Part shown: positions 128-40,095 of the stretch, one piece after another | How the letters are laid out: every line of letters starts with the position of its first letter | Position numbering within the stretch: position 1 is the first letter of the stretch | Notes under the pieces: generated by a model | The model's input: the letters and a program-made list of their open reading frames with translations, nothing else | What the model was told of the DNA's origin: nothing | Database searches by the model: none | Made by a program: the position numbers and the translations under genes | From: a virus | IMG/VR virus record: IMGVR_UViG_3300044274_000136 | Location: 1-40,095 of that record | Strand: one strand, 5' to 3' | Length of the DNA: 40,095 nt

Positions 128-482
128 CAATAATATTGCTGTTATTTTTCATAGCTTAGGAAAAAATGAACTAGCTATTAAGTACTACCTAGAGGCTATC
201 AGTTTAAAGCCTGATGATCCTAGTTTTCACTACAACCTAGGTATTGTCTATCAAGCAGAAAATGACGTTACTAATGCAATAAAAGCTTACCAGCATGCCC
301 TAAAATTAGACCCTAGTTTTATGTTAGCTTTTGGCAACCTTACTACTCTTTTACTTAAAAAACCACAATATCAGCAGGCTTTAGAAGGGTTTAGTGGTTT
401 ATTAGCATTGCAACCTGATGAAAATTATCAAAATATGGTTACCATTTTGCAGAAACTTATTGACAAGCAAGTCTTGCAATGA
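39..482 (+). CDS. TPR-repeat protein (TPR-1); true start probably upstream across the circle junction (ATG 39965 or 39950)
   Basis: TPR-like 34-aa repeats, e.g. AIKYYLEAISLKPDDPSFHYNLGIVY and AIKAYQHALKLDPSFMLAFGNL. The frame stays open back to 39941. The last codons (LIDKQVLQ) are encoded by promoter cassette a. Confidence 0.8.
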   Translation: MAYCAKNDYSNALKVCKKAVKVCPSYPYTYNNIAVIFHSLGKNELAIKYYLEAISLKPDDPSFHYNLGIVYQAENDVTNAIKAYQHALKLDPSFMLAFGNLTTLLLKKPQYQQALEGFSGLLALQPDENYQNMVTILQKLIDKQVLQ

Positions 483-488
483 TAAGGT
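460..488 (+). promoter_or_regulatory. Cassette a: TTGACA-17-TAAGGT promoter with palindrome GCAAG-T-CTTGC in the spacer
   Basis: TTGACA 460-465, palindrome 467-477, -10 at 483-488. A conserved leader aataggatataaaa precedes ATG 518. Confidence 0.6.
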
Positions 489-517
489 AAATCCACAAAT
501 AATAGGATATAAAAGTT

Positions 518-931
518 ATGACTGAAATTAAAAAAATAATGGAGCAAGTATACTTACAAGAAAAACACCAAGAGGCTATTCATTGTGGTGAAGCCTTATT
601 GTTATCTGGTTATGAAGCTGATGCAAATCTTTATTTTATGCTTGGCACTTCCTACTCACGGCTTGAACAATATGATAAAGCTATTAGCAATTTAGCAGAA
701 TCCATTAAGTTAAAACCTGATTATGCACAGGCACACCATAACCTTGGTGTTGCTTATGGTGAAAAAGGAGACTATGACAAAGCTGTAGAAGCTTATAACC
801 AAGCTATTAAGCTAGACCCTGATAAGGACTATGGGCACTATAACCTTCGTAATGCTTCTTATACTAAAGAATGGTATGTCAGAGCCATAGTTTGTAGTGA
901 GAAAGGCATTGAGGAGGGTGACAAATCATGA
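518..931 (+). CDS. TPR-repeat protein (TPR-2)
   Basis: AISNLAESIKLKPDYAQAHHNLGVAYGEKGDYDKAVEAYNQAIKLDPD is near-consensus TPR; no other domain is visible. Confidence 0.85.
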   Translation: MTEIKKIMEQVYLQEKHQEAIHCGEALLLSGYEADANLYFMLGTSYSRLEQYDKAISNLAESIKLKPDYAQAHHNLGVAYGEKGDYDKAVEAYNQAIKLDPDKDYGHYNLRNASYTKEWYVRAIVCSEKGIEEGDKS

Positions 932-1101: not shown

Positions 1102-1228
1102 TACAATTCATTTGATATTACTAGCAGTAGTCTTGTTATTTATCGTAGCTATTGCTGGTGATATTGACACTAAGGAGCAAGCAGACAGGGGGGTGTTATG
1201 GAAGCAAAGGGGGCTTTTACATGGCTAG
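1088..1228 (+). CDS. Small exported/membrane peptide, 46 aa (below the track cutoff)
   Basis: MQLSSTIHLILLAVVLLFIVAIAGDIDTKEQADRGVLWKQRGLLHG: hydrophobic N-terminus plus a hydrophilic tail. SD GGAGG at 1077-1081; overlaps both neighbouring genes. Confidence 0.45.
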   Translation: MQLSSTIHLILLAVVLLFIVAIAGDIDTKEQADRGVLWKQRGLLHG

Positions 1229-1568
1229 AATTACTCAAGAAATGGTCTTGCAAACTGCTAACGATTTATTTGTTGAGCATGGTAGAAAAATTAAGCGTAA
1301 GGAGCTAACAGAAGTTCTTAATTGCAGTTGGTCTGCCATTGATCAAATCTTTGAAACTCGAGAGCCTTTGTATAAATATGTAGAAACCCCCCAAGAGGTG
1401 CAGGAGCGTCATAAGAGGGATAAGGTGGGTGCATACAGGGTTGATCCTAATAGAGGTCACCCAAAAGTTTACAAAAAAGATGGTGGGTATATTGCAGTGG
1501 GGCGAGAAATACCACCTGAATTATTAGAACGTGCAAAACAATTAAAAGAAAGGTATAATTTAAGATAA
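1221..1568 (+). CDS. Hypothetical protein with HTH-like N-terminal domain (paralog family 1 of 3)
   Basis: Start moved to ATG 1221 (SD AAAGGGGG upstream). The N-terminus ITQEMVLQTANDLFVEHGRKIKRKELTEVLNC aligns with the 1593 and 31269 proteins. Confidence 0.6.
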   Translation: MARITQEMVLQTANDLFVEHGRKIKRKELTEVLNCSWSAIDQIFETREPLYKYVETPQEVQERHKRDKVGAYRVDPNRGHPKVYKKDGGYIAVGREIPPELLERAKQLKERYNLR

Positions 1569-1592
1569 TTTTGTTTGGAGAATAATAATAAT

Positions 1593-2171
1593 ATGAGAAC
1601 AATATTGACAGGTCAAGAGATCTACCAGCAAGCGGAAAAGCTTTTTAATGAGAGTAATAAACCTATTACTAAGCAACAGTTGGCAGAGGCTCTTAATTGT
1701 CATTATAGAGTATTAGACAGGTGGCTAAACTCTGGGCATGTTGACAAAGGGATTGAGGTTTTTTTTGAGAAAAGCAGGCGTAAAAGAGTAAGAAAAAACC
1801 TGCTGGTACGAGAAAAAAAGGTTGTTGATATTATTTTAAATTCTGCAAAAAAGTTATCAGATAATGGAAAAAGAAGGGTTACTCAAGTGGACATAGTTAA
1901 TAATACGGAATTGAGCAGATTTATTGTAACAAAATATGTTGCAGGTGGCAAAATGCCAGATGAGTTTTTTGATTACATAGAACTTAACCGCCTTAAGGTA
2001 AATCATGGAAAAAGGAACACTGGCAAAAATGATACTATTGAAGTTTGGAATCCTGACATGAGCAAATATTTAACACAGCATCAAATTGATAGCTTAAGGC
2101 AACATAGCACTACTAAGCAATCAGTTGATCAATTAACCAATTTTAGAAAGGTAGATTATGATAGAGTATGA
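1593..2171 (+). CDS. Hypothetical protein with HTH-like N-terminal domain (paralog family 2 of 3)
   Basis: LTGQEIYQQAEKLFNESNKPITKQQLAEALNCHYRVLDRWL resembles the 1221 protein. ATG 1593 follows GGAG at 1577-1580. Confidence 0.6.
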   Translation: MRTILTGQEIYQQAEKLFNESNKPITKQQLAEALNCHYRVLDRWLNSGHVDKGIEVFFEKSRRKRVRKNLLVREKKVVDIILNSAKKLSDNGKRRVTQVDIVNNTELSRFIVTKYVAGGKMPDEFFDYIELNRLKVNHGKRNTGKNDTIEVWNPDMSKYLTQHQIDSLRQHSTTKQSVDQLTNFRKVDYDRV

Positions 2172-2337
2172 TATACAGCAAGCCGTAAATGAGGCTTATT
2201 TTGCTAATGATCATAGAGAGATAATGCAAAACGTTAGTAATGATAACACCAAGTTACTGGAAGTAGAAGTCGAAGATAACGTTAATAATGATGATAATAA
2301 TAAAAATATAAGAAAAGACCCAACCTATGGAATATAA
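2158..2337 (+). CDS. Small acidic protein, 59 aa (below the track cutoff)
   Basis: MIEYDIQQAVNEAYFANDHREIMQNVSNDNTKLLEVEVEDNVNNDDNNKNIRKDPTYGI. SD AAAGG lies 6 nt upstream; it bridges the two flanking genes by overlaps. Confidence 0.35.
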   Translation: MIEYDIQQAVNEAYFANDHREIMQNVSNDNTKLLEVEVEDNVNNDDNNKNIRKDPTYGI

Positions 2338-3058
2338 TATCCCGCAATTAATATTAGAGAGGCTTAGAGAAGAAAGGGCAAAGTCTCCTAGTAAGAAACG
2401 CAAGGTAGCTTGTGTGATATATTGCCAACAAAAAGACATTATATGTGCTGGTCACAATCAGCGAATAACAGAAAGCCTTACACTTAGCCAGCCCAATTTT
2501 ATCAAGCAATGGTACGCTGAAACTAAAAAGAGAGCGACTTCGTATGATAAAGAGGATTTTGTCCACGCTGAAACGATGGCATGTTATAATTCTTATCGTA
2601 GGAAATTGGGGGTTGAAGATTATCATTATATTAGAAACATCAAAAAAGCGGTAAAAGTTTATGTAACACACAAGCCTTGTGAAGTTTGCGAAAAATATCT
2701 AAATGAGTTTTTTAATGAGCCTATTATCAAAGTTGTTGATTTAGATAAAAAAAAGGCATTCATAAAGCATGATGATGATAAAACCCAATATCAGCATTTA
2801 AGTCCTAAGTTCATTGAAGAGATGGCAGAGATTACCACACAGGGGGCTAAAAAATACGGTGGGGGTAACTACCTGAAAGGTGATGAGCAGGCTCTGATGC
2901 GTCTTTATGACGCCCTCATGAGGCATTTGCAAGCATGGCGTATGGGTGAAGAAGTAGACACTGAAAGTGGGAAGTCTCATTTATCCCATGTTGGTTGTAA
3001 TGCTATGATGATTTATGCGTTGGAGCATAAGCTGAAATTGACTGGTGAAAAAGCGTAA
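2327..3058 (+). CDS. Fusion: dCMP/cytidine deaminase-like zinc domain (N) plus DUF5664-like domain (C; family annotated dATP/dGTP diphosphohydrolase N-terminal)
   Basis: N half: KRKVACVIY..AGHNQ, HAE (VHAETMA), PCxxC (KPCEVCEKYL). C half: KKYGGGNYLKGDEQALMRLYDALMRHLQAWRMGEEVDTESGKSHLSHVGCNAMMIYALE. Confidence 0.7.
   Translation: MEYNIPQLILERLREERAKSPSKKRKVACVIYCQQKDIICAGHNQRITESLTLSQPNFIKQWYAETKKRATSYDKEDFVHAETMACYNSYRRKLGVEDYHYIRNIKKAVKVYVTHKPCEVCEKYLNEFFNEPIIKVVDLDKKKAFIKHDDDKTQYQHLSPKFIEEMAEITTQGAKKYGGGNYLKGDEQALMRLYDALMRHLQAWRMGEEVDTESGKSHLSHVGCNAMMIYALEHKLKLTGEKA
3034..3053 (+). repeat. Direct repeat, left copy (AAATTGACTGGTGAAAAAGC), flanking an 868-bp gene cassette
   Basis: 19/20 identical to 3902-3921; encodes the C-terminus KLTGEKA of the deaminase fusion. 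Confidence 0.8.
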
Positions 3059-3076
3059 AGTAATATCAAAAACTTA

Positions 3077-3105
3077 TTGACAAGCAAGTCTTGCTATGTT
3101 AGGTT
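3077..3105 (+). promoter_or_regulatory. Cassette b: TTGACA-17-TAGGTT with palindrome AGCAAG-T-CTTGCT
   Basis: The 22-nt core cttattgacaagcaagtcttgc is identical in cassettes a, b and c; the leader aacaataggatataaa precedes ATG 3131. Confidence 0.6.
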
Positions 3106-3130
3106 AAAGTAACAAACAATAGGATATAAA

Positions 3131-3616
3131 ATGATTGCTTTAAATGTTGAAAAAATTACTAATGTTTTAGAAAAAGCTGGCTTACGTTACTTTGTTAAAA
3201 CGGCTAATACTGGTACTAATTATATTAATATACCATCATTTGATGTGGTGGTAAGGGTTGCCGATCATAGCGATGCTTATTGTACTAGTGATATTTCGAT
3301 CAGTCCGCTTGATGATAACTACACTGATTTTTTAGAGTTTATGGTGCGTAAAATCGCTGATTATAATGATGATGGTATGTATCAAAACGAGCTAGACATA
3401 TTTACTAAAAGATATAACGCTAGTAAATCTGCCAGAGAAAGGGCTGTTAATGCTAAAATTAAGGCAAGAGATGAGCTTATACAGAAGGCTAAAATTGAAA
3501 AGCAGAGATTGGAAGATCAGGCTAAATGGATTGAGGAAAATTATCCTGATTACTCTACTTTGTCTAAAAGACAAAAAAAATCAATAAGACAAAAATATAA
3601 CAAATCAATGAGATAA
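3131..3616 (+). CDS. Hypothetical protein with Lys/Glu-rich C-terminal helix
   Basis: ORF behind cassette b; no family recognised (motif VRVADHSDAY noted). Confidence 0.6.
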   Translation: MIALNVEKITNVLEKAGLRYFVKTANTGTNYINIPSFDVVVRVADHSDAYCTSDISISPLDDNYTDFLEFMVRKIADYNDDGMYQNELDIFTKRYNASKSARERAVNAKIKARDELIQKAKIEKQRLEDQAKWIEENYPDYSTLSKRQKKSIRQKYNKSMR

Positions 3617-3619
3617 ATT

Positions 3620-3901
3620 ATGACTGAAATTCAAAAACTAAAAGAAGCTGAGGAGTATTACAACCTTGGTAATACTTATCGTACAAAAGGAGATTATGAC
3701 AGAGCTATAGAAGCTTATAAGGAAGCCATTAAATTAGATCCTGATGATGCCAAGGCACACCACGTCCTTGGTGTTACTTATCATATTAAAGAAGAAAATG
3801 CACACTATAACTATGACAAAGCTATAGAAGCATATAAGGAAGCCATTAAATTAGATCCTGATTATGTCAATGCACACTATAACCTTGATAAGTTAAATTA
3901 A
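3620..3901 (+). CDS. TPR-repeat protein (TPR-3), paralog of TPR-2
   Basis: KGDYDRAIEAYKEAIKLDPDDAKAHHVLGVTY and KAIEAYKEAIKLDPDYVNAHYNL. It shares the ATGACTGAAATT start with TPR-2. Confidence 0.85.
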   Translation: MTEIQKLKEAEEYYNLGNTYRTKGDYDRAIEAYKEAIKLDPDDAKAHHVLGVTYHIKEENAHYNYDKAIEAYKEAIKLDPDYVNAHYNLDKLN

Positions 3902-6043: not shown

Positions 6044-6501
6044 TTATTAGAGGTTTAGACAGCAATGGTGAGTGGCTTTTTGGTAAGGGTGTGCAGGATT
6101 ATGCACGTAATAAAAAAGCTATTGTTTTAAATGTTAAAACTAGGTTAAAATCATGGGTTAATGATTGTTTTTTTGATCAGGAAGCTGGTATTGATTGGGG
6201 CAATAGGCTAGGCAATAATGGGCAGAGGGAGTTTTTAGAAACTGATATTCAAAACGTGATTGTTAATAGTTTTGGTGTCACTGGTATATCTGATTTCAAT
6301 AGTAATTTAGATGACAGAAAGTTAACAGTCAATTATACTATTACTACTATTGATGGCGATGTGCTAGATAGTTTAGGAATTTTTGATGAAAAAGAAATAA
6401 CAGCGGGTGTTATAGTAGCTGGTGATGCCTTTACAAATAGCTGGGAAGCCACTATCATCAGTAACGATAATAATACAAATTATATATATAGCGGTGAGTA
6501 A
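6040..6501 (+). CDS. Putative baseplate wedge protein (gpW/gp25 position)
   Basis: Position between spike and J-like genes; overlapping start and stop codons; weak motif support only. Confidence 0.45.
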   Translation: MIIRGLDSNGEWLFGKGVQDYARNKKAIVLNVKTRLKSWVNDCFFDQEAGIDWGNRLGNNGQREFLETDIQNVIVNSFGVTGISDFNSNLDDRKLTVNYTITTIDGDVLDSLGIFDEKEITAGVIVAGDAFTNSWEATIISNDNNTNYIYSGE

Positions 6502-7463
6502 TGAGTGTGATTTATAACTATCGAATGCAACAGAGAGTAGACACGTTTGCAAATTGGACTGTTGCTAATCCTATTTTAGCAAGTGGTGAGATTGCTTTTG
6601 TTAATGATCAAAATAAAATGAAAGTAGGTGATGGTGTGCAAAGCTTTAATGCTCTGCCATACATTACTGATAATATAAATACTGATAATATTTCTGAAAA
6701 AACTGCTGGGGCTGGCGTTACAGTAGATGGGGTGTTGTTTAAAGATGGTGATGTTACCGCTGGTCGGCGAGTAAATCTAAAAGACGTATTGCCTACTTTA
6801 GATTTTGAGGTTACTAATGGAGTAACCACGCATAATAATGTGTGGTTTATAACAACAAGCGACGCTTTTCAAATACAAACACGAGACAATAGCAATACTT
6901 TTGTTGCTAACGATTATCTTTTAGACCGTAATGGTACTGGAGCTACTAAACATAGGTGGCGAATTGCTAACGTGGATAAGTTAATTATTGACAGTTCAGG
7001 TAATACTTCAATCAAGGGTCTAGCCAGTGCGGAACAAGGTATCTCTTTTGATAATGGCACTAACACGCTAGAACATTATGAGGAGGGTACTTTTACGCCT
7101 CAATACTCTTTTGTTAACACTCCCACTTATACTACTCAAACGGGAAAGTATACAAGAATAGGCAATATATTATACTTTACGTTAAAAATTGAAGTATCTA
7201 GTCTTGATAATACTGATACGTCTAATATACACGTTACAGGCTTGCCGTTTAACGCTTCACAACTTTATCAAATAAACGCAAGTTTGAACCCTAACCAAAG
7301 CACAATATTGGCTGATTATTTGCAAACAACTGATGCTGTTTATTTTGGGCAACTTAACAACACAACGGCTATTCAGCTTCAAAATGGTGATGGTGATTAT
7401 ATTAAATATAGTCATATAAAATCTAGCGGAAGCCTTACTATAACAGGCTGGTATTTTGTATAA
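6501..7463 (+). CDS. Tail fibre / receptor-binding-like protein with Mtd_N/HylP-type N-terminal domain
   Basis: RVDTFANWTVANPILASGEIAFVNDQNKMKVGDGVQSFNALPYI matches the widespread fibre N-terminal motif DTxANWxxxNPxLxxGExxxExDxxxxKxGDGxxxxxxLPY. Confidence 0.65.
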   Translation: MSVIYNYRMQQRVDTFANWTVANPILASGEIAFVNDQNKMKVGDGVQSFNALPYITDNINTDNISEKTAGAGVTVDGVLFKDGDVTAGRRVNLKDVLPTLDFEVTNGVTTHNNVWFITTSDAFQIQTRDNSNTFVANDYLLDRNGTGATKHRWRIANVDKLIIDSSGNTSIKGLASAEQGISFDNGTNTLEHYEEGTFTPQYSFVNTPTYTTQTGKYTRIGNILYFTLKIEVSSLDNTDTSNIHVTGLPFNASQLYQINASLNPNQSTILADYLQTTDAVYFGQLNNTTAIQLQNGDGDYIKYSHIKSSGSLTITGWYFV

Positions 7464-16734: not shown

Positions 16735-16749
16735 TAGTATATTTCCTTA

Positions 16750-16778
16750 TTGACAAGCAAGTCTTGCTATGTTAGGTT
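16750..16778 (+). promoter_or_regulatory. Cassette c: TTGACA-17-TAGGTT with palindrome AGCAAG-T-CTTGCT
   Basis: Identical over the 32 nt cttattgacaagcaagtcttgctatgttaggt to cassette b; lies 16 nt after the portal stop. Confidence 0.6.
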
Positions 16779-16804
16779 AAAGTTAACAAATAATAGGAAA
16801 ATAT

Positions 16805-17203
16805 ATGACTGAAGACATACTAAAATACAAAATGGAAGACGGTCTAAAGATCATCTTAAAAGATGGTAAAGGTTCGTATCTTAGCTCTAGCGCTGAATAT
16901 TACGACCCAGTATATAAATATTATAAACGTAACTCATTGTTAGTCATTGAAGGACAAGGACTCTATAAGTATACACATGAATTATCAGACGTAGAGGCGA
17001 TAATAGAGTACAAATTAATTACAACAATGATTTCTGAGACGGGAAAGGAGTTTCGTTATTTTCGTGCATTTAAAGACAAAAAACATATTGATAGCAATGA
17101 TGATAATGAAATTTGCTTTAATGAAATAGAGGCAAAGATAAAAGAAATTAAAGAGGAATATGAAGAGATGTCGTCTTATGCAAAACAAGTAACTAACACT
17201 TGA
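16805..17203 (+). CDS. Hypothetical protein (island gene 1)
   Basis: ORF behind cassette c. It begins ATGACTGAA like TPR-2, TPR-3 and erf. Its TGA stop lies inside the TTGACA of cassette d. Confidence 0.6.
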   Translation: MTEDILKYKMEDGLKIILKDGKGSYLSSSAEYYDPVYKYYKRNSLLVIEGQGLYKYTHELSDVEAIIEYKLITTMISETGKEFRYFRAFKDKKHIDSNDDNEICFNEIEAKIKEIKEEYEEMSSYAKQVTNT

Positions 17204-17228
17204 CAAGTAAATCTTGCAATGTTATAGT
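17200..17228 (+). promoter_or_regulatory. Cassette d: TTGACA-17-TATAGT
   Basis: ttgacaagtaaatcttgcaatgttatagt followed by the leader taagtaacaaaaaataaggatatatt and ATG 17255. Confidence 0.6.
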
Positions 17229-17254
17229 TAAGTAACAAAAAATAAGGATATATT

Positions 17255-17872
17255 ATGACGACAGAGCAAAACATCATTCAAGATATCATAAATAAATATA
17301 GGGATTTAATTAATTTAACTCCTAACTTTGAGAAACATTACAGTTATCCAAAAATTACGGATTTAGTAAAGGGAAACTATGGTTTTTATTATACAGAGAT
17401 AGGGAAAGCTTATAACCTTTGGAGGGAGAAAGAAAAAGCCATTGAATGCCACAAGAAAGCAGTTGAGTTAAGCCCTAGCACAACGTCTTATTACTGGCTT
17501 GCTGAGGCATACAATACAAGTGATGATTTAGATAAAAAAATAGCAGCTTATAAAAAAGCAATTGAGTTAGATACAAGGGAGAGAGACTCTTTAGAAGCGT
17601 TAGAAAGTTTAGCATTAGTTTATTTCATGACTGATAAACATAATGAGGCATTAGCTAGTTATGAAAAACTCCTTGAAAAAGAATGGCTTTTTAGTGCAAA
17701 ACATAAGGCAAAGCTGTTTTACATGCTTGCAGTGTGTTATGAAGATGTCGAAAGATACGAAGATGCAAAAGAAGCCTATACTAAAAGCTATCAAATTGAT
17801 CCCGACTTAGTAAAGCAACGTGATGTATTGGCACGGCTTGCAAATAGTGTAGATTGGCAGACAGGGAATTAA
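17255..17872 (+). CDS. TPR-repeat protein (TPR-4)
   Basis: AIECHKKAVELSPSTTSYYWLAEAY, KIAAYKKAIELD and YEDAKEAYTKSYQIDPD repeats. Confidence 0.8.
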   Translation: MTTEQNIIQDIINKYRDLINLTPNFEKHYSYPKITDLVKGNYGFYYTEIGKAYNLWREKEKAIECHKKAVELSPSTTSYYWLAEAYNTSDDLDKKIAAYKKAIELDTRERDSLEALESLALVYFMTDKHNEALASYEKLLEKEWLFSAKHKAKLFYMLAVCYEDVERYEDAKEAYTKSYQIDPDLVKQRDVLARLANSVDWQTGN

Positions 17873-17895
17873 AACAGGTGCATTACGATCAATAC

Positions 17896-18159
17896 ATGTC
17901 ATTTTTTAGGAAAAGGCGATACGATGCACAGATAAAGCAGATAAAAAAGGATTTAAAAGTATCTGAAATTTCTTTTGAGAAGGAACGGCTAGAGCTTGAA
18001 GAGATAGAGAGGAAAATAGGGGTTAAAGCTAAAGACTTGCCTAGCATCATTGCTGATGAGATTACGTGGGAGGGTGGTATTGTTACCTATAGAAAGGGTG
18101 ATATGTATTACTCTCAAAAGATTAATTTAGCAGATAAGCAAGTAAGGTATAGGAGGTAG
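17896..18159 (+). CDS. Hypothetical coiled-coil protein (start uncertain: TTG 17854, GTG 17878 or ATG 17896)
   Basis: ORF 17854-18159; first ATG at 17896. Confidence 0.45.
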   Translation: MSFFRKRRYDAQIKQIKKDLKVSEISFEKERLELEEIERKIGVKAKDLPSIIADEITWEGGIVTYRKGDMYYSQKINLADKQVRYRR

Positions 18160-18162
18160 TAT

Positions 18163-18303
18163 ATGGCAAAGCCAGATAAAGTGGAGAACTTTCTAAATGG
18201 TGTACGTTATTGGCTACTAGGTATAACGTGTCTGCTTATAGGAACGTTTACAGCGTTAGCATTATTCTTAATATGTTATGATATGATGGGGTATTTAGTA
18301 TGA
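18163..18303 (+). CDS. Small membrane protein, 46 aa (below the track cutoff)
   Basis: MAKPDKVENFLNGVRYWLLGITCLLIGTFTALALFLICYDMMGYLV; strong SD AGGAGG 7 nt upstream. Confidence 0.55.
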   Translation: MAKPDKVENFLNGVRYWLLGITCLLIGTFTALALFLICYDMMGYLV

Positions 18304-18467
18304 GTAAGATTGATTCTGATAAATTTGTTTTTTTTATAATAAATATTTGTTTAATAGCTATGGGTATTGTTATTAGTACTTTGTTACTTTCTATCTCCGT
18401 TTTTCTTATTGATGGTGTAATAGACATTATATGGGATAAACCTTGTGTTTGTGAGGGGGGTGGGTAA
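18300..18467 (+). CDS. Small membrane protein, 55 aa (below the track cutoff)
   Basis: MSKIDSDKFVFFIINICLIAMGIVISTLLLSISVFLIDGVIDIIWDKPCVCEGGG. ATGA overlap upstream and TAATG overlap downstream. Confidence 0.45.
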   Translation: MSKIDSDKFVFFIINICLIAMGIVISTLLLSISVFLIDGVIDIIWDKPCVCEGGG

Positions 18468-18787
18468 TGACTAAAAAAACATTACACCCTAATTGGCAGC
18501 CAATAAATACCGCCCCAAAAAATCGCAGGTTTCTTGTGTATGCTAAGGTGGGTATTATTTATATACCTACATTTAGTTTTATTGATGGTAACAAATATGA
18601 AGATGGTTGCGAAGAGGTAAAATTTGGTGGCATAAAAGATTGTGAGTGGCTGGAAGATCGCTTTTACTGTGATGGTTTTGAGTTTTGCGATAAAGGTTAT
18701 TTGTTTAATGAAGATGAAAGAATCGCTACAGAAACACACTTAATCGGTTGGTTTGATTATAACGAAATTCAGGTTCCTAATGACTAA
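18467..18787 (+). CDS. Hypothetical protein with WxPIxTAPK N-terminal motif
   Basis: HPNWQPINTAPKNRRFLVYAK resembles a motif common in small proteobacterial phage proteins (DUF551-like). Confidence 0.55.
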   Translation: MTKKTLHPNWQPINTAPKNRRFLVYAKVGIIYIPTFSFIDGNKYEDGCEEVKFGGIKDCEWLEDRFYCDGFEFCDKGYLFNEDERIATETHLIGWFDYNEIQVPND

Positions 18788-19307
18788 ACAAAAACTCGCT
18801 AAATTAGAAGATATACAACAAGCAATTCTTGCCCATAATTCAGAATGGAAGGTTCTGGTTGACATAAAAGATATAGGTTTATGTCGTGTAGATTATCTAT
18901 TCTTATGTGGAAACGGACTTATTCAGATGCAATATAGATCATCAAAAGACAATCACTTTACTACAAAGCAAGTTGATTTCAAGGACTTGTATATCGGTGA
19001 AGAAAATCACCCAGACTTTTACCTTCATTCTGAACACAATGAAGAACTAGAGCCGAAAATTGATGATTTTGTTTATGGTAGTTTTTTGGAACATAATTCT
19101 ACTTACGAGGAAGATTTAAAAATTCTTTTAAATACAACCTCTCATGCAATATCTTTTAACCAGCAGAGCGACCCCGTCTCTTTGGTTCATTTTAAGCAAC
19201 TGGAAGCAGAAACACAGATTTATTATTTAAAAACGTGTTATCGTATTATTTATCGTGAAAACGTTGCATACTTTCCGCAATTTGAATGGGTAACATATCA
19301 TGACTAA
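18780..19307 (+). CDS. Hypothetical protein
   Basis: Start moved to ATG 18780 (8-nt overlap with the previous gene). Confidence 0.55.
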   Translation: MTKQKLAKLEDIQQAILAHNSEWKVLVDIKDIGLCRVDYLFLCGNGLIQMQYRSSKDNHFTTKQVDFKDLYIGEENHPDFYLHSEHNEELEPKIDDFVYGSFLEHNSTYEEDLKILLNTTSHAISFNQQSDPVSLVHFKQLEAETQIYYLKTCYRIIYRENVAYFPQFEWVTYHD

Positions 19308-19569
19308 TGAACAACTGTTTGATTTTTTTACTGGATTAAGCCAGCTACATAAACTTGACGCAGAACAATTAAATGATTTATTGCTAGTGCTTGATGATGT
19401 TTCAAAAGACATGAACAACACTGCTAAAGATTGGCGGGATTGTAAAGTGCCTTATGTTACGGAAAATAACCATAGCTTGCATGAGATGCAACTTTATGAG
19501 TTAAAACTTAAAATACATTCGGAATTAAAAGAAAAAGTAAAGGAACTATTAGAGTATGGCAATAAATAG
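19300..19569 (+). CDS. Hypothetical protein
   Basis: ORF with overlapping start and stop codons in an operon-like array. Confidence 0.55.
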   Translation: MTNEQLFDFFTGLSQLHKLDAEQLNDLLLVLDDVSKDMNNTAKDWRDCKVPYVTENNHSLHEMQLYELKLKIHSELKEKVKELLEYGNK

Positions 19570-19840
19570 ACATAATGGGTCTTATGGTAATGTAAAGCCT
19601 AAACCTTTTAGGCAATATCTTAAGGAATGGTTTTGTAAACATGATTTAAAGCTTGTTGGTCATAGAAAGGGGTTAAGCTATAGTAGAGAACGATATCCTG
19701 CTTGTGTACGTTTACATAATGGTGATATTGCTTGCTGGCATGATCATAATCAAATTGAGATTTATGAATGCTCTAAGTGTGGTGCTAAGGTTGAAAAGGT
19801 GGTCAGTAAAGAAACTAAGGTTTCTATATTATCTAGTTAA
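19556..19840 (+). CDS. Hypothetical Cys/His-rich protein
   Basis: CKH..C..H..C.H.H...CSKCG pattern suggests a small zinc-binding protein. Confidence 0.5.
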   Translation: MAINRHNGSYGNVKPKPFRQYLKEWFCKHDLKLVGHRKGLSYSRERYPACVRLHNGDIACWHDHNQIEIYECSKCGAKVEKVVSKETKVSILSS

Positions 19841-19846
19841 TGTATG

Positions 19847-19874
19847 TTTACAAGTTAAGCTTATGCTGTAAAAT
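19847..19874 (+). promoter_or_regulatory. Degenerate cassette-like promoter (TTTACA-16-TAAAAT) ending 6 nt before ATG 19881
   Basis: tttacaagttaag matches cassette e ttgacaagttaag; there is no SD between the -10 and the ATG. Confidence 0.4.
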
Positions 19875-19880
19875 CTAGTC

Positions 19881-20852
19881 ATGAAACTAGGTGACAAGAT
19901 CAAGATCACAAAGGCTATGCACGCTAAGCAGGCTGATGAGATTAAGGCTATTTTATATGATCAGATATTTAGACCTATCATAGACATTAGCGAGTTCACA
20001 GATCGGGATTTGTTTAATGATAATGATGATTTATTGCGTGCGTTACGTGCAGGTGAGATTATATATAAAGATGGTGCTTTTAGGGGTAAATTTAGTGCAT
20101 CGATTACAAAGGCATTGCGTAAGATAGGGGCAGAGTATGGCAGAGTGGCAGGACAGCCAGTTTATAAGCTAAAGGATATCAGCAGTACTGATTTATCAGC
20201 GTATAGGTCAGCTATACTGGTAGGCACTGCAAACGCTGAAAGGTTGCTAACTAATGTTGAGGGGTATTTAGAAGCGTTAAGTTTTGATACGTCTAACTTT
20301 GATGTATCACCAAGCAGTACGATTGATCAGTTGAACAAGAAGATATCCAAATCACTAAATAAGATGGGTATAGAGGCAACATCGACTACCGATATTGAGG
20401 AGCAGTTAACTAAGAGATATATCGAGAATGTTAATCTTAGTATCAAGAAAGCATCTAATGATACTGTGATTAAGTTGCGTAAAAAGATAGCAGAGCGAGG
20501 GCTAGATGGCACTAGGGCTGAAAGCTTCGTGGATATGATTAGGAAGGAACTAAAAGCTAGTGAGAAGCGAGCGGCTTTTATAGCACGTCAAGAGACTGGG
20601 TTACTAGTTAGTAAGTATAAAGAGGAAAACTATAAGCGAGTAGGCATAAGGCGTTATGTGTGGGATACAACGGGTAATAATAGGGTAAGGGAAGATCATG
20701 AGAGTTTAGATGGTCAGATATTTAGTTGGGATAACCCACCAATTAGCAATCAGAGTGAAGTTGCGAGGGGGTTACCTGCTAGGTATAATCACCCGGGCGA
20801 AGACTTCCGTTGTTTTTGTGTAGCAAGACCACTTGTTGATGAAAGTAGTTGA
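19881..20852 (+). CDS. Head morphogenesis protein (Mu F / SPP1 gp7 family)
   Basis: ARQETGLLVSKY..YVWDTTGNNRVREDHESLDGQIFSWDNPP is the family signature. Confidence 0.85.
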   Translation: MKLGDKIKITKAMHAKQADEIKAILYDQIFRPIIDISEFTDRDLFNDNDDLLRALRAGEIIYKDGAFRGKFSASITKALRKIGAEYGRVAGQPVYKLKDISSTDLSAYRSAILVGTANAERLLTNVEGYLEALSFDTSNFDVSPSSTIDQLNKKISKSLNKMGIEATSTTDIEEQLTKRYIENVNLSIKKASNDTVIKLRKKIAERGLDGTRAESFVDMIRKELKASEKRAAFIARQETGLLVSKYKEENYKRVGIRRYVWDTTGNNRVREDHESLDGQIFSWDNPPISNQSEVARGLPARYNHPGEDFRCFCVARPLVDESS

Positions 20853-31268: not shown

Positions 31269-31673
31269 ATGCATTTCGGCGACAAAAAAGATAAAGCATA
31301 CCTTGAAAGTGAGATTTTAGAGAGTGCAAAGTCTTTTTATAATAAGAATGGTAAAAAGTTCAACTGCAAAGAGTTTGCACGTTATTTAGGCAAGCACCCC
31401 CGAACGGTGCAAAATCACTTAAATGGTAATAAAGATATTTATGCATATATGCTAACCCCTAGGGAGGCAAGGTCAGAGGCACATAAAAAGATAAACTTAA
31501 TCCCTAATAATGAGAAAATCAAAAAAGAAAAGCAATTTAGGGATAAGCAAAAAAGAACGAAGGTACATGAGATAAAAAGACAGGTAAATCTCTATCAGAT
31601 TGAGCGGTTGAGGGCTAGAGCTACTTGTCCAGCAACGATGCAAAGGCTTAAGGAATTAGAGACTGCAAGTTGA
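31269..31673 (+). CDS. Hypothetical protein with HTH-like N-terminal domain (paralog family 3 of 3)
   Basis: ESEILESAKSFYNKNGKKFNCKEFARYLGKHPRTVQNHL aligns with the 1221 and 1593 proteins; basic C-terminus. Confidence 0.6.
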   Translation: MHFGDKKDKAYLESEILESAKSFYNKNGKKFNCKEFARYLGKHPRTVQNHLNGNKDIYAYMLTPREARSEAHKKINLIPNNEKIKKEKQFRDKQKRTKVHEIKRQVNLYQIERLRARATCPATMQRLKELETAS

Positions 31674-31697
31674 CATTTGCTAATCTTGCAATATAGT
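31670..31697 (+). promoter_or_regulatory. Cassette g (divergent member): TTGACA-16-TATAGT
   Basis: ttgacatttgctaatcttgcaatatagt; the TGA stop of the upstream gene lies inside TTGACA, as in cassette d. Confidence 0.45.
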
Positions 31698-31771: not shown

Positions 31772-32032
31772 ATGAAGGCTTTACATTTTTTCAAAAATCA
31801 GGTTAGCATAATAGACATTAGTGATCATGCCAATTACTCTAAGCTATGTGTTAATGGTGTTTCAGAGGTGCAACAAATTGTAGGCTTGATTGATCAGAAG
31901 CTATTAACCCAGCCTTATGCAGGAAGCCCTCCAGTGGTTGTTTTTAAAGGCTCTAAGGGTACTCTGATCGTTAAAAAGTACCTTAAAGAGACTGGTAAGC
32001 TAATACCTCAAAAGCTTAAGTATCTTCTTTAA
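31772..32032 (+). CDS. Hypothetical protein
   Basis: ORF converging on, and overlapping by 17 nt, the minus-strand XRE gene. Confidence 0.4.
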   Translation: MKALHFFKNQVSIIDISDHANYSKLCVNGVSEVQQIVGLIDQKLLTQPYAGSPPVVVFKGSKGTLIVKKYLKETGKLIPQKLKYLL

Positions 32033-32474
32033 GTATGGCATACAGTTTGTCAGTGCTGATTTTATCTTTTCCCGTCACACCTTTTACAAACCTTATCAAA
32101 TTCTCTTTATCTTTTTTGCTTTTAATCCTATTAAAGGCTTTTATCAATTGAACTACTTGTCTATCTTGACTACTAATCAGGTCTTTTCTACTCATTTTTA
32201 GGTTAGTCATGGGTGTTCCACTAAATAGGTAATCCAAATCAATGTTTAGTATATTGCACAGGCTTATTATAAACTCATAGTTCATCCTAATAATCTCACC
32301 CTTTTCATGTTGCTGGATTGATTGCCTTGTTATGTCCATGAGTTTGGCTAATTGTGCCCTAGTTAATTGATGAAGTTCCCTAGCACAATAGATATTATAG
32401 CCTATCCGCTGTGACACTGTCATTTTTTCAATCGGTACTTCGGGAAAGTTTTCTGGTTTTGACTTTTTTGCCAT
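32016..32474 (-). CDS. XRE-family HTH regulator with C-terminal helical domain (XRE-2)
   Basis: RIGYNIYCARELHQLTRAQLAKLMDITRQSIQQHEKGE is an HTH_3 signature. Confidence 0.8.
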   Translation of the reverse strand: MAKKSKPENFPEVPIEKMTVSQRIGYNIYCARELHQLTRAQLAKLMDITRQSIQQHEKGEIIRMNYEFIISLCNILNIDLDYLFSGTPMTNLKMSRKDLISSQDRQVVQLIKAFNRIKSKKDKENLIRFVKGVTGKDKISTDKLYAILKEDT

Positions 32475-32885
32475 TTAATCCTCTAAAACTCCATGATTGA
32501 TTTTTTGCAGGCAGTTGGTCTTAGTCATACTAGTCATAAATTCCACTAACCTAATTTGTGCGGCTTGATCAATCTTTAAGTAGCATGTTACTAGCCTTGC
32601 TATATTATCATCGTTCATCAATGTATACGTTACATCATTTCTTTGATCATCATCTAAAAATTCTTGATCAAAAAACCAATTTGCATCTACCTGCAAAGCC
32701 CTAGCTATTTGCAACAACTTATAAACTTTTAGAGATGTCATACCCGCCTCATACTTTTGTATTTGTTGCGTGCTAACTTCTAAATGCAATGCTAATTGTG
32801 TTCTACTTAAACCTAGCAGTTTCCTTCGAATTCTGATTTTTCTGCCAACCGCTAAGTCAATTTGCTTTTGAAATTCTGTATTCAT
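32475..32885 (-). CDS. XRE-family HTH regulator with C-terminal helical domain (XRE-1)
   Basis: VGRKIRIRRKLLGLSRTQLALHLEVSTQQIQKYEAGMTS..IARALQVDANWFF is an HTH_3 signature. Confidence 0.85.
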   Translation of the reverse strand: MNTEFQKQIDLAVGRKIRIRRKLLGLSRTQLALHLEVSTQQIQKYEAGMTSLKVYKLLQIARALQVDANWFFDQEFLDDDQRNDVTYTLMNDDNIARLVTCYLKIDQAAQIRLVEFMTSMTKTNCLQKINHGVLED

Positions 32886-33067: not shown

Positions 33068-33249
33068 ATGTGGTGCAAGGTTGTTAATATAGTAGCTATG
33101 GCAAATAAACCATACATAGGCACGATAAAGCATAAACGTATCATACAAGCTCGCTTGCCTTTACCCTCGATTCTTTCATTAATTTCGAATATTGCGTATA
33201 TTATAAAAGCCCAAAGTGCTACTAATAATATAAAATCTACTGGTATCAT
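33064..33249 (-). CDS. Small two-TM membrane protein, 61 aa
   Basis: DFILLVALWAFIIYAIF and LCFIVPMYGLFAIATILTTL; SD AAGGAGG upstream; TAATG overlap with the upstream gene. Confidence 0.55.
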   Translation of the reverse strand: MIPVDFILLVALWAFIIYAIFEINERIEGKGKRACMIRLCFIVPMYGLFAIATILTTLHHI

Positions 33250-33563
33250 TATTTAGCCTCCTTGTTATTTGGCAATAAACTACCTGCATACGCAACGTAA
33301 CCAATATTATGATAGCCACAACTCCAGCTTATTTCTCTTATATGTTCACCTTTGCGTACTACTAACAACGCTCTACCGCCTACAATGCGTTCAGTAGGGT
33401 GCTTTGAGTGTGGCGTATATAGAGTTATTGCATCTACTAACTCGATGTCTTTATTTTTGGCTAAAACCTCATTGCAATAGTCGGTGTACTTCTTTGGAGG
33501 CTTGGCAACCATGAAGTGAAATTCACTGCTTTCAAATTCTATTAGATATGTTGGTAAGTTCAT
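33249..33563 (-). CDS. Hypothetical protein, first gene of the leftward operon
   Basis: ORF behind a TTGACG-17-TATTAT promoter with a cassette-like leader aaataataaggatatatatt. Confidence 0.6.
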   Translation of the reverse strand: MNLPTYLIEFESSEFHFMVAKPPKKYTDYCNEVLAKNKDIELVDAITLYTPHSKHPTERIVGGRALLVVRKGEHIREISWSCGYHNIGYVAYAGSLLPNNKEAK

Positions 33564-33589: not shown

Positions 33590-33618
33590 ATAATACGTTG
33601 CTTTTTTCAAAACGTCAA
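33590..33618 (-). promoter_or_regulatory. Leftward promoter TTGACG-17-TATTAT
   Basis: Minus strand: the -35 sits at 33618-33613 and the -10 at 33595-33590. Confidence 0.55.
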
Positions 33619-33640
33619 GTAGTTTGTTAATAAATAGTTG

Positions 33641-33668
33641 TTGACTTCTAAAAACGATAAGTTAAATT
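33641..33668 (+). promoter_or_regulatory. Rightward promoter TTGACT-16-TAAATT, back to back with the leftward promoter
   Basis: TTGACT 33641-33646, TAAATT 33663-33668. Confidence 0.5.
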
Positions 33669-33674
33669 GATTTT

Positions 33675-33799
33675 GAGGTATTGGGTTTTTACCCTCTCAA
33701 TATCTCCTTACCTTGCCTTGCATTCCTCCTTTCTGCAAGGTGTGTTTTTCAGGTAAGAGACTGCCTCGTAAGCCCCAGAAATGGGAGGCAGTCTTTTTT
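33675..33799 (+). ncRNA. Candidate ~125-nt small RNA (promoter to intrinsic terminator, no ORF)
   Basis: Contains the hairpin CCTTGCA-[ttcctcctttc]-TGCAAGG (33716-33740, anti-SD-like CU-rich loop) and a 9-bp terminator stem plus T6. Confidence 0.5.
33757..33799 (+). terminator. Intrinsic terminator
   Basis: GACTGCCTC (33759-33767) pairs with GAGGCAGTC (33785-33793), followed by TTTTTT. Confidence 0.7.
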
Positions 33800-33847
33800 A
33801 TGACCGCCTACAAACCTATCCCTACTCTTAGGCGGTCTATCCCTATA

Positions 33848-33875
33848 TTGACATTGCTAATAAGTGTGGTATAAT
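33848..33875 (+). promoter_or_regulatory. Near-consensus promoter TTGACA-16-TGgTATAAT
   Basis: TTGACA 33848-33853, TATAAT 33870-33875 with TG at 33867-33868. Preceded by two CTATCCCTA repeats (33816-33824 and 33837-33845). Confidence 0.65.
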
Positions 33876-33926
33876 GTAGATGAGAGTGTGGCAATACTCT
33901 CTTCATATATATTTTTATTTTTGTTT

Positions 33927-33970
33927 CCGCCTTAGTTTTTTTGGGAGAATTTTCTAAGGCGGTTTTTTTT
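33927..33970 (+). terminator. Intrinsic terminator/attenuator abutting ATG 33971
   Basis: CCGCCTTAG (33927-33935) pairs with CTAAGGCGG (33954-33962), followed by T8. The only SD-like AAGG for the next gene lies in the 3' arm. Confidence 0.7.
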
Positions 33971-34231
33971 ATGGCTAAGAAGATAACAGAACAGCGTGAA
34001 GATAAGCTTATGGCAGACTTTGCTTTAAGAGTGCTTGGGAAAATTGATAATGGAGAAGAAGAGCTTTATCCAGCCAGTGTATTGCTAGAGATGGCTAATG
34101 AAGATTACGAAGATATCACCCTTGCTAATGAAGCTGAGCAGGTTTTTAGTAGTATTGAGGCGGGGGAAGAAAAGACTATCAGCTCCAAAGAGTTTTTCGA
34201 AGATGCAAAGCAAAGAGGGTTTGATATCTAG
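33971..34231 (+). CDS. Small very acidic protein, 86 aa
   Basis: Start moved to ATG 33971 (the track's TTG 33941 lies inside the terminator loop); Glu/Asp-rich throughout. Confidence 0.5.
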   Translation: MAKKITEQREDKLMADFALRVLGKIDNGEEELYPASVLLEMANEDYEDITLANEAEQVFSSIEAGEEKTISSKEFFEDAKQRGFDI

Positions 34232-34363: not shown

Positions 34364-34636
34364 TCACTTTTTCTCTGGCACGTATAAACCTTCGTAAAAA
34401 TCAGTTACACTTATTTCAAAGTATTTAGCCAGTTTGTTTAGATTTTCCACACTTATTGTTAATTTACCTTTTTCAAACAAAGATACTGCTTGCCTAGTAA
34501 CACCTAAGCATTCTGCCACAGCAAGGACATTAGCTCCCGAGCGTTCGCGTATTTTCCTAACATTTCTGCCAATGACTTGATTAACATTAAGGTAATAAAA
34601 CAAAAACAATAGTATTATTGCCAATGTGCAAAACAT
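34364..34636 (-). CDS. Small XRE-family HTH regulator (repressor-like) with hydrophobic N-terminal extension
   Basis: IGRNVRKIRERSGANVLAVAECLGVTRQAVSLFEKGK is an HTH_3 signature; no SD lies before ATG 34636. Confidence 0.75.
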   Translation of the reverse strand: MFCTLAIILLFLFYYLNVNQVIGRNVRKIRERSGANVLAVAECLGVTRQAVSLFEKGKLTISVENLNKLAKYFEISVTDFYEGLYVPEKK

Positions 34637-36940: not shown

Positions 36941-37072
36941 ATGAATAACCAAGATCAGTATATCTTTTTTTTGCGTTTTCTTCAAGAAAAAATGATCAAT
37001 TTATGTAGAAAAACATTGACAAGCATGTATTGCCCAAGTATAGTAAAATTAACTAATGGTAAACAAATATGA
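36941..37072 (+). CDS. Possible small protein, 43 aa (below the track cutoff)
   Basis: AGGA lies 7 nt upstream. The ORF reads through cassette f and ends with an ATGA overlap onto the next small ORF. Confidence 0.3.
   Translation: MNNQDQYIFFLRFLQEKMINLCRKTLTSMYCPSIVKLTNGKQI
37016..37044 (+). promoter_or_regulatory. Cassette f: TTGACA-17-TATAGT
   Basis: ttgacaagcatgtattgcccaagtatagt, 24 nt before ATG 37069. Confidence 0.5.
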
Positions 37073-37484: not shown

Positions 37485-37586
37485 TAATTGGGGGAAGTTT
37501 TCTAAACCCCCCGTTTCTAGCCATTTTCGAGGTGGTTATACAGCAATTCACGTGTACGTTTTTTCTTGTTTTTATGGTAAAAAACG

Positions 37587-37615
37587 TTGACAAGTTAAGA
37601 TTGCTATGTTAGATT
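37587..37615 (+). promoter_or_regulatory. Cassette e: TTGACA-17-TAGATT
   Basis: ttgacaagttaagattgctatgttagatt followed by the leader aaagttaacaaaaaaataaggatatatt and ATG 37644. Confidence 0.6.
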
Positions 37616-37643
37616 AAAGTTAACAAAAAAATAAGGATATATT

Positions 37644-38414
37644 ATGACTGAGCAACAACTCACTTTTTATCAGAAAGTTTCAAAGATACAGGCTGAATTG
37701 AATGCTCCTAAAAATGCGTTTAATGCTTTTGGGAAGTATAAATATCGCAATCTTGAGAGTATTCTTGAGAGCTTAAAGCCACATCTTGATAAACATGAAC
37801 TTTTTTTAACGTTAAACGATGAGATAGTTAAGTTTGATAATCCGCAGGGTATCCCAGTGGCAAGTGACGTTAATCAAAAAGCACCTCAAGCACCTAATTC
37901 AATAATAGATAGTATGCGTTGTCGTTATTACATTAAGGCTACAGCAACCATATCAGATGGTGCAAAAGAACTTTCAACTTTTGCATATGCACGGGAGGAG
38001 CTTTCTAAAAAAGGTATGGACGCTAGTCAATTAACAGGCTCTTGCAGTTCATACGCTAGAAAATATGCGTTAGGAGGGTTGTTTGCCATTGATGACAACA
38101 AAGACGCTGACAGTAGGGATAACACGGAAAGCAAGCAGATTAAGAGGAAGGTTAAAAGTAGTGAGCCTGCTAATCAAGGTAAAGAGAATATTTTAGCTGA
38201 TTTAACAAGTAAAGTTTCTAAATTGCAAAGCATACAAGAGGCTAATAGCTTATGGGTTGCAGCTATAGGTCATGTGCAAGGTGGTGATTTAGAGCGTGCT
38301 GATATTTCTGATTTTTGGAATCAGTTAGAGTATTATTGTGATATGACTTTTCAAGCTTCGTACGATAAACAAGCTAAGCAGTTTATTGTTAACGAAGGTG
38401 CAACGTTTCAGTAA
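37644..38414 (+). CDS. erf: Erf-family single-strand annealing protein
   Basis: ELNAPKNAFNAFGKYKYRNLESILESLKP, YYIKATATISDG and KKGMDASQLTGSCSSYARKYALGGLFAIDDNKDAD closely parallel P22 Erf. Confidence 0.93.
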   Translation: MTEQQLTFYQKVSKIQAELNAPKNAFNAFGKYKYRNLESILESLKPHLDKHELFLTLNDEIVKFDNPQGIPVASDVNQKAPQAPNSIIDSMRCRYYIKATATISDGAKELSTFAYAREELSKKGMDASQLTGSCSSYARKYALGGLFAIDDNKDADSRDNTESKQIKRKVKSSEPANQGKENILADLTSKVSKLQSIQEANSLWVAAIGHVQGGDLERADISDFWNQLEYYCDMTFQASYDKQAKQFIVNEGATFQ

Positions 38415-39983: not shown

Positions 39984-40095
39984 CTGAACGCTACAATAAA
40001 AAGTGCATGGCTTACTGTGCTAAAAACGACTATTCTAATGCCTTAAAGGTTTGCAAAAAAGCAGTCAAGGTATGCCCTAGTTATCCATACACGTA
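39969..40095. repeat. Second copy of the terminal overlap (same as 1-127)
   Basis: Direct reading; contains the RuvC-like stop codon (39981-39983) and the 5' end of the TPR-1 gene. Confidence 0.95.

Follow-up and report, generated by a model that had tools for sequence, protein, structure and literature searches.

A stretch of viral DNA of 40,095 nucleotides (nt), taken from the IMG/VR record IMGVR_UViG_3300044274_000136 (positions 1 to 40,095; called the window below), carries short repeated cassettes in which a promoter, a leader and a start codon are joined in front of a gene. The cassettes are probably paralogous copies of one self-contained promoter-leader-start unit, which would express accessory genes and at the same time serve as a recombination substrate. 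The copies share one anatomy and one pattern of conservation, they are restricted to a single phage lineage, and breakpoints of homology between related phages coincide with them.

The membership of the family was defined with a profile built from copies a to e and searched against the window with nhmmer. Five full copies were recognised (a to e, Table 1; E values 1e-13 to 1e-19), which have about 65 nt in common, from the -35 hexamer through the ATG, with pairwise identity of 60-86%. The original prediction, made from the letters of the window, had spoken of seven to eight near-identical cassettes; the repeats are real, but only five of them are full-length and they are less alike than that wording implied. 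Of the three other proposed members, f matches by its promoter half only, g is marginal and the element at 19847 finds no support in the profile, so that by E values the window has five full cassettes and a partial one, besides two promoter-like sites of the ordinary kind. Several details were borne out exactly. The TTGACA hexamers of a to f are all followed by a 17-nt spacer and a TAnnnT -10, and the 22-mer CTTATTGACAAGCAAGTCTTGC, said to be common to a, b and c, is present at just three positions (456, 3073, 16746), with zero expected. A TGA stop is embedded in TTGACA in d (stop of the open reading frame (ORF) 16805-17203) and in g (stop of ORF 31269-31673), in a the TPR-1 ORF (ending at 482) continues through -35 and spacer and has the TGA of the TGn as its stop codon, and a 43-amino-acid (aa) ORF (36941-37072) traverses f. 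The served genes also agree with the earlier list (TPR-2, the 3131 gene, the 16805 gene, TPR-4, erf and a small ORF); apart from TPR and Erf, this cargo belongs to no Pfam or PHROG family and consists of ORFans. The conserved leader is present in a to e, but f has a different leader and no family leader follows g. Conservation of the first codons (Met-Thr-Glu) had been claimed as well, but it is not specific to the cassettes: ATGAC opens 15 of the 65 plus-strand ORFs taken as genes, 11 of them without a cassette, and ATGACGACA begins two genes that have no cassette. As ATGAC is common genome-wide, a Met-Thr-Glu start is not evidence that the cassette reaches into the ORF.

Seven related metagenomic phages were collected through portal and Erf homologues, all genomes being metagenomic assemblies. 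At the nucleotide level L005 is 98-99% identical to the window, L279/L280 and L281/L282 are 99.9% identical to it in the portal region, L191/L278 about 85-90%, and L080/L192/L193 as well as L081 about 80-90%; the portal protein of L197 is 60% identical to that of the window. Material of this lineage was located in the runs SRR29022241, SRR31273384, SRR5924581, SRR6713262 and SRR19658993 and in the JGI metagenomes 3300044223, 3300044224 and 3300044452. In all, 21 copies from the window and these relatives were compared, comprising 19 distinct -35 to -10 sequences from 8 genomes. The -35 is an exact TTGACA in every copy, the spacer measures 17 nt in 18 copies and 16 nt in three, and an ATG stands 24-29 nt after the -10 in all 21. 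The TAnnnT of the -10 is invariant and is preceded at one base by TG (the extended -10, TGn) in 16 of the 19 distinct sequences. The leader is A-rich, AAGT(T)AACAAA..AATA(A)GGATATA, with an AGGA Shine-Dalgarno and the AAGTAACAAA box, and every copy is oriented like the gene it precedes.

Column by column, the 19 sequences are invariant at TTGACA, at T1, A2 and T6 of the -10, at spacer position 1 (A) and at spacer positions 9-10 (TT), and near-invariant at spacer positions 2 (G), 11 (G), 12 (C) and 15-16 (TG). In terms of information, spacer positions 1-2 (AG) and 9-12 (TTGC) reach 1.2-2.0 bits, and positions 3-8 stay at 0.3-0.8 bits, close to random. Such a pattern is the one expected of a promoter under selection, with the mid-spacer TTGC as the one surprise, and by their -35, spacer and -10 the cassettes classify as predicted sigma-70 (housekeeping) promoters with an extended -10. 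Orthologous cassettes are 84-97% identical, whereas identity in the 300-nt flanks goes from 94% to as little as about 52% on one or both sides, a level tentatively read as unrelated sequence. A cassette of the same signature follows the portal gene even in L197. The conservation of the cassettes thus appears to exceed neutral drift.

The suggestion of a portable boundary element that mobilises morons, which formed part of the original prediction, is well supported by the relatives, through breaks at c and d, replacement of the gene behind b and presence or absence of TPR-1. Where relatives are 98-99.9% identical to the window, homology is lost at the -35 or the ATG of c and regained at the leader of d or beyond. 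The identity of L005 to the window ends at the TTGACA of c and resumes at 17807; after its portal gene L005 combines another spacer (ACCGTCAGTTAT..) with a leader like that of d, and the TPR gene differs as well. L279 and L281 are 99.9% identical to the window up to 16808 (ATG of c) and 99.3% from 17230 (leader of d), and differ only in between, where the window has g132 and the d promoter and the two relatives have an unrelated 251-aa ORFan (g251), a post-portal cassette variant, g83 and a leader-only copy. The architecture of L279 is complete in three samples, and its cassette c' is found in a fourth. In L080 the g132 homologue is preceded by the leader alone and homology begins at 16778, where the -10 of c ends; in L081 homology returns at 17189, the upstream edge of d. 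The same is seen at cassettes a and b. Homology to L192 extends from 1207 to 3128 and ends 3 nt before the ATG of b, after which L192 has a 159-aa gene without detectable similarity to the 161-aa gene of the window, of which the L191 version is 86% identical. TPR-1, immediately upstream of a, is absent in L192, where a RuvC-like gene abuts cassette a. Altogether the interval between portal and MuF shows seven different gene arrangements in the window and six relatives. By a rough estimate the five cassettes make up about 1% of the compared sequence, yet 7 of about 25 breakpoints fall inside them.

Traces of copying between cassettes are also visible. Cassette c is identical to b over 39 nt (3073-3111 against 16746-16784) while keeping its post-portal flank (TATTTCCTTATTGACAA), and the post-portal copy of L279 tracks b over 55 nt that begin with the CTTA preceding the -35 and end with AGGA. 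These two facts indicate that an early-region core has been copied to a place 13.7 kb away. The base at the centre of the dyad carried in the spacer is T in a, b and c of the window and C in a and b of L191; a centre base shared within each genome fits within-genome homogenisation (concerted evolution).

The mechanism put forward here, in which promoter activity, its timing and the enzymes of recombination are all deduced from sequence, is as follows. The cassettes stand before accessory genes (TPR proteins, ORFans, Erf) and most likely fire as internal promoters dependent on the host RNA polymerase. With an internal promoter of their own, the accessory genes would be expressed independently of the surrounding operon, among them the two late-region genes that lie between portal and MuF. 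Stretches of 25-65 nt of near-identical sequence at many gene boundaries would let the copies act as substrates of homologous recombination, which could employ the Erf protein, the Ref-like nuclease and the RuvC-like resolvase of the phage itself. Exchange between copies would delete, insert or replace the genes lying between them and would copy cores from site to site, and every recombinant would keep a working promoter and ribosome-binding site.

Several points weigh against this interpretation. Breakpoints are also found away from cassettes, at 17806/17807, 18158, 18727, 3608 and 3914, and the cassettes therefore appear as preferred junctions, not as sole ones. Breakpoints common to several relatives may stem from one event, such repeats could in principle yield strain-chimeric joins in metagenomic assemblies, and the c-g132 junction of the window is not seen in a second assembly. 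Gene conversion alone could maintain the similarity of the copies without selection on each conserved base. As to the promoters, a generic promoter scan gives no more sites than in shuffled sequence and adds nothing, and the predicted strength of the promoters derives from their consensus and pattern of conservation.

The distribution of the cassettes beyond the window is narrow. A motif scan of the genome and of related phages, which had been suggested together with the prediction, found that about seven related metagenomic phages carry cassettes at corresponding sites, with none outside this lineage. In both L191 and L192 the profile matches the orthologues of a, b and e; the f site of L192 is below the profile threshold and was recognised by alignment. 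A cassette stands straight after the portal gene in every relative, and more full or leader-only copies are found within the portal-MuF interval. Scans of IMG/VR, of GTDB genomes and of JGI metagenomes with cassette patterns returned no member outside the lineage, and about 160 more distant loci, which were anchored on Erf in IMG/VR (52% identity or less) or on the portal (27% or less), are without cassettes. The pattern TTGACAAGN6TTGCWATGWTA matches 4 loci in IMG/VR and 68 in GTDB genomes, all of them single matches with profile scores of 24 bits or less compared with 45-65 for true copies, and the matches in both collections mostly resemble generic promoters in metagenome-assembled genomes of Firmicutes type; they were rejected. 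A leader 20-mer and a gapped promoter-leader pattern found in IMG/VR a known relative plus chance matches only, and in the JGI metagenome collection neither a specific gapped pattern nor a portal-alignment search gave a match. One locus (L003) looked cassette-like by eye, yet it has no tblastx similarity to the window and was set aside.

The conserved bases of the spacer bear on another explanation, namely that the spacer element is an operator through which one phage or host DNA-binding protein switches all cassettes as a dispersed regulon. This could coexist with the role in recombination, and it is regarded as possible, though tentative. As first proposed, with a single regulator bound to the palindrome GCAAG-N-CTTGC, it is not supported. 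The palindrome is perfect in a, b and c, but among all copies only these and their orthologues have it so; L191 and L192 keep the arms and vary the centre, and b of L192 has GTAAG. With one mismatch allowed, the palindrome pattern finds 5 sites against 1.4 expected. Cassette d and one L080 copy retain CAAG-N5-CTTG by borrowing the end of the -35, cassettes e and f and several relatives retain only CAA-N7-TTG, and the post-portal variant retains neither, though promoter and leader are kept. No copy of the dyad was found near the three XRE genes or the promoters between them. Moreover, with c being a copy of b, the three identical dyads do not count as independent. A perfect dyad confined to the a/b/c subfamily does not support one palindrome-binding regulator for the whole family.

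A weaker version of the regulon survives. The spacer element conserved family-wide is TTGACAAG-N6-TTGC, in which spacer positions 1-2 and 9-12 come close to the -35 and -10 in invariance and positions 3-8 are free. The mid-spacer sequence is not normally constrained in sigma-70 promoters. A nearly invariant AG and TTGC around a free N6 would fit contact with a protein, which could be a regulator or the polymerase of the host. It also speaks for regulation that the a and b orthologues keep the arms of the dyad while the centre base switches between T and C, and that three XRE-type helix-turn-helix proteins are encoded; the replacement of TTGC by TTAC in L191 e, L191 f and L192 f speaks against it. 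More doubtful is the fuller proposal that AG/TTGC is a recognition element for a phage or host regulator or for the host RNA polymerase, and that the cassette is a portable module of promoter, operator and leader, one switch for dispersed TPR and ORFan genes, spread by Erf-type recombination. If it were true, the post-portal variant without the element would be a naturally unregulated allele.

According to a further explanation, the leader and not the promoter is the functional core, acting as a start-associated translation element similar to the start-associated sequences (SAS) of Cluster K mycobacteriophages and usually coupled to a promoter. Leader copies without a promoter do precede genes in L080 (12460-12490), L279 (12418) and L278 (11576), and direct reading of the sequence finds one upstream of g114 in L005; a AATAAGGATATAT..ATG context also stands before the minus-strand gene 33249-33563, and the spacing to the ATG is fixed. 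On the other hand, the promoter half is conserved at least as well as the leader, f has the promoter with a different leader, and the leader may be just a good Shine-Dalgarno context in unstructured A-rich RNA. The leader as the core of the unit is therefore judged rather unlikely, and the combined unit of promoter, leader and start is preferred.

It is highly improbable that the cassette is a true promoter-terminator of the type known as promoter-early stem-loop (PeSL), in which the palindrome would be a stem-loop ending upstream transcription. The palindrome does sit between the -35 and -10, a position described for the stem-loop of PeSLs (PMC2839356), but its 5-bp arms around one base allow 4 bp of pairing at most, it is missing from most family members and no T-run follows it. 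Folding of six cassettes gave no RNA structure beyond that of shuffles (z from -1.3 to +1.1), and a terminator scan, itself no better than shuffles, gave no terminator-like site at any cassette. Equally remote is the explanation by functionless remnants of recent duplications or by assembly artefacts at repeats, for although a, b and c share long identical stretches and all sequences come from metagenome assemblies, the cassettes occupy the same sites in assemblies made independently from different samples and even where the portal is 60% identical, their variable and invariant positions obey the logic of a promoter, and they are better conserved than their flanks.

Table 1. Cassettes and related elements of the window, with the coordinates of their parts (all on the plus strand; E values from the profile built on a to e)
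Feature	Position	-35	Palindrome	-10	Start codon and gene	E value	Remarks
Cassette a	450..520 (+)	TTGACA 460-465	GCAAGTCTTGC 467-477	TAAGGT 483-488	ATG 518 of TPR-2	1.9e-16	TGn 480-482 (TPR-1 stop TGA); leader 489-517; orthologues in L191, L192
Cassette b	3067..3133 (+)	3077-3082	3084-3094	TAGGTT 3100-3105	ATG 3131 of ORFan 3131-3616	2.5e-19	Orthologues in L191, L192
Cassette c	16740..16807 (+)	16750-16755	16757-16767	16773-16778	ATG 16805 of ORFan g132	1.4e-17	Straight after portal stop; chimera of post-portal flank and b-type core
Cassette d	17190..17257 (+)	17200-17205 (holds g132 TGA stop)		TATAGT 17223-17228	ATG 17255 of TPR-4	1.1e-15	Orthologues at L080 12856, L081 11911; leader only in L279
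Cassette e	37577..37646 (+)	37587-37592		TAGATT 37610-37615	ATG 37644 of erf	2.5e-13	
Cassette f	37006..37071 (+)	37016-37021		TATAGT 37039-37044	ATG 37069 of 48-aa ORF	0.013	Family-type promoter half only; no TGn; different leader; conserved in L191 and L192
Site g	31670..31697 (+)	TTGACA, then 16-nt spacer		TATAGT		0.87	Sigma-70-like promoter; conserved in L192
19847 element	19847..19883 (+)	TTTACA, then 16-nt spacer		TAAAAT		9.4	Upstream of MuF, right edge of variable island
Hypervariable island	16735..19880 (+)						Portal to MuF-like head protein; full or leader-only cassettes at gene junctions, left part

The two sites that were not accepted as members have some features of their own. 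Membership of site g is not demonstrable, neither a family leader nor a gene start being found downstream of it. In L192 an IS605-type TnpB (OrfB_IS605, Cas12f-like TNB; 1314-2483) lies just downstream of the g promoter and a conserved GGGGCTTGACCACACCCCTACTTACT box, and the corresponding place in the window (31772-32032) is taken by an 86-aa ORF instead. The first 13 nt of the 19847 element (TTTACAAGTTAAG) do resemble cassette e. L080, L081 and L278 have conserved this promoter-like element (TTTACAAGTTAAGCTTATGCTGTAAAAT), while in L005 and L279 a methyltransferase gene has displaced it. The gene in question, for an N6/N4 DNA methyltransferase, stands directly upstream of MuF in L005 (3557-4387), L279 (13975-14877) and L281, and is absent there in the window, L080, L081 and L278.

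As for the genome as a whole, bases 1-127 are identical to 39969-40095, which means that the contig is circularly closed or terminally redundant at these 127-bp ends, with a true length of 39,968 bp; its G+C content is 36%. The JGI contig Ga0451480_001695 (L194) of metagenome 3300044449, a record of 20,039 bp with 100% identity to the window, is the window's own genome in permuted form. Nearly all genes are carried by the plus strand, and a short minus-strand block holds two XRE-type regulators, with a third one further on; their genes occupy 32016-32474, 32475-32885 and 34364-34636, all on the minus strand. The plus strand encodes replication and recombination proteins including the Erf annealing protein, a RecA-dependent (Ref-like) nuclease and a RuvC-like resolvase, together with several TPR proteins, a dCMP-deaminase/MazZ-like fusion, and baseplate, tail, terminase, portal, MuF-like head, capsid and sheath proteins. 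The portal belongs to PF06381, the tail proteins are E217/Pam3-like and the head protein is MuF-like; the phage is not T4-like. No close cultured phage was found by megablast; the best match of portal and capsid is Bdellovibrio phage phi1422 (26%), and TerL is near 30% identical to Firmicutes phages. A search for RNA features gave no Rfam family and no tRNA.

The TPR genes form four paralogues (39965-482, 518-931, 3620-3901 and 17255-17872) with internal repeats of 102-117 nt. Both the repeat number and the gene number vary among relatives (at site a the product has 73 to 257 aa), and TPR-3 is an insertion without a cassette that is not found in L191 or L192. At 17806/17807 the window is without 122 nt which are present in the 99%-identical L279 (13014-13135). 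Because of this gap the TPR-4 ORF continues into the 5' portion of the g140 homologue, the remainder of which is ORF 17854-18159 with a TTG start. The missing 122 nt are either a real frameshifting deletion or an assembly fault.

Other regions also deserve a short description. At least four 15-nt iterons (CCGTTGACGGAAAA) lie at 35551-35662, inside the replication-initiator gene 35248-36285, and are followed by AT-rich TAATAATACTGATAT repeats; this region is probably the replication origin. ORF 2327-3058, kept in L191 and L192, joins a dCMP/cytidine deaminase domain to a dATP/dGTP diphosphohydrolase N-terminal domain (PF18909, MazZ-like), and as no ORF of PurZ size lies near it, a genome with 2-aminoadenine is not indicated. 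The non-coding region 33600-33975 between divergent regulator genes contains a perfect consensus promoter, TTGACA-16-TGgTATAAT (33848-33875), and two elements made of a hairpin and a T-run; it may encode small RNAs and has no Rfam match. A protein of the tail-fibre region (6501-7463, with homologues in L081, L191 and L192) has a weak match to Mtd_N (major tropism determinant); no reverse transcriptase was matched among the proteins scanned, which cover part of the genome, and a diversity-generating retroelement is not evident.

Among known systems, the nearest are the PeSLs of T4-type phages (Arbiol et al. 2010, PMC2839356; Comeau et al. 2014, PMC4122927), units of about 70-100 bp consisting of an upstream stop codon, a sigma-70 consensus promoter, a Shine-Dalgarno and a start codon. 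The cassettes have the same composite layout, often with the upstream stop codon inside the unit, and stand mostly upstream of ORFans in hyperplastic regions, as the seven portal-MuF architectures illustrate. In both systems the repeats delimit the indels and replacements that distinguish close relatives, and recombination between copies is the proposed mechanism. Unlike PeSLs, the cassettes have no stable stem-loop or terminator, and they include a strongly conserved leader that is separable as a sub-module. They are also fewer, with 5-6 copies in a genome of 40 kb where PeSLs number about 50 in one of 170 kb, and their phage has no kinship with T4. On account of the missing stem-loop and terminator and of this lack of kinship, the cassettes can be called PeSL-like in their working, not members of the PeSL family.

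Morons of lambdoid phages, reportedly described by Juhala and co-workers in 2000, are similar in that genes with a promoter of their own lie between normally adjacent genes (here portal and MuF) and vary in their presence among relatives. A terminator scan, itself no better than shuffles, detected no terminator-like site from 16.8 to 18.5 kb and only a weak one at 18548; the cassettes also differ from morons in that their promoters form one paralogous family common with early-region genes and are not mutually unrelated. In Cluster A mycobacteriophages the stoperators are asymmetric sites of 13-14 bp to which a known repressor binds, and they lie mostly outside promoters. The likeness to stoperators (PMC9283540, PMC6550527) consists of many copies of a short site in one orientation as a possible repressor target; here the conserved bases, a putative binding site, sit inside the promoter spacer.

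The SAS and their extended form (ESAS) of Cluster K mycobacteriophages (Pope et al. 2011, PMC3203893) have the 13-bp consensus GGGATAGGAGCCC, located 3-7 bp from the start codon. As in that system, a conserved asymmetric repeat containing a Shine-Dalgarno lies a few bases before the starts of non-structural genes of different families, in a single orientation, and may take in upstream stop codons; here it also occurs as leader-only copies. The leader does not match the GGGATAGGAGCCC consensus and the resemblance is positional only; moreover the repeat is joined here to a complete promoter, and the 17-bp inverted repeats of ESAS are absent. Intergenic repeats of 29-58 bp in halovirus HF2, conserved in sequence and position across the genus, have been shown to be promoters (Russ et al. 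2021, PMC8707807), and they resemble the cassettes as repeated promoter-carrying intergenic sequences. With HF2 both the virus and its promoter elements are archaeal, and no link of the repeats to gene exchange is reported in the parts of that source used here.

It can be said that the proposed mechanism resembles the one described for T4-type phages, and as such it is no new principle and opens no new field. Within the promoter spacer a conserved element is flagged as a putative contact site of a protein or of the polymerase. Cassette-mediated modular shuffling has been documented mainly in large virulent T4-type phages, and the same logic would operate here in a small (40-kb), unrelated and uncultured myovirus lineage with a simpler cassette, which has no terminator and a separable leader. 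The junctions are resolved to the base among genomes 99% identical to each other, and the case would explain the presence of TPR and ORFan genes between portal and MuF.

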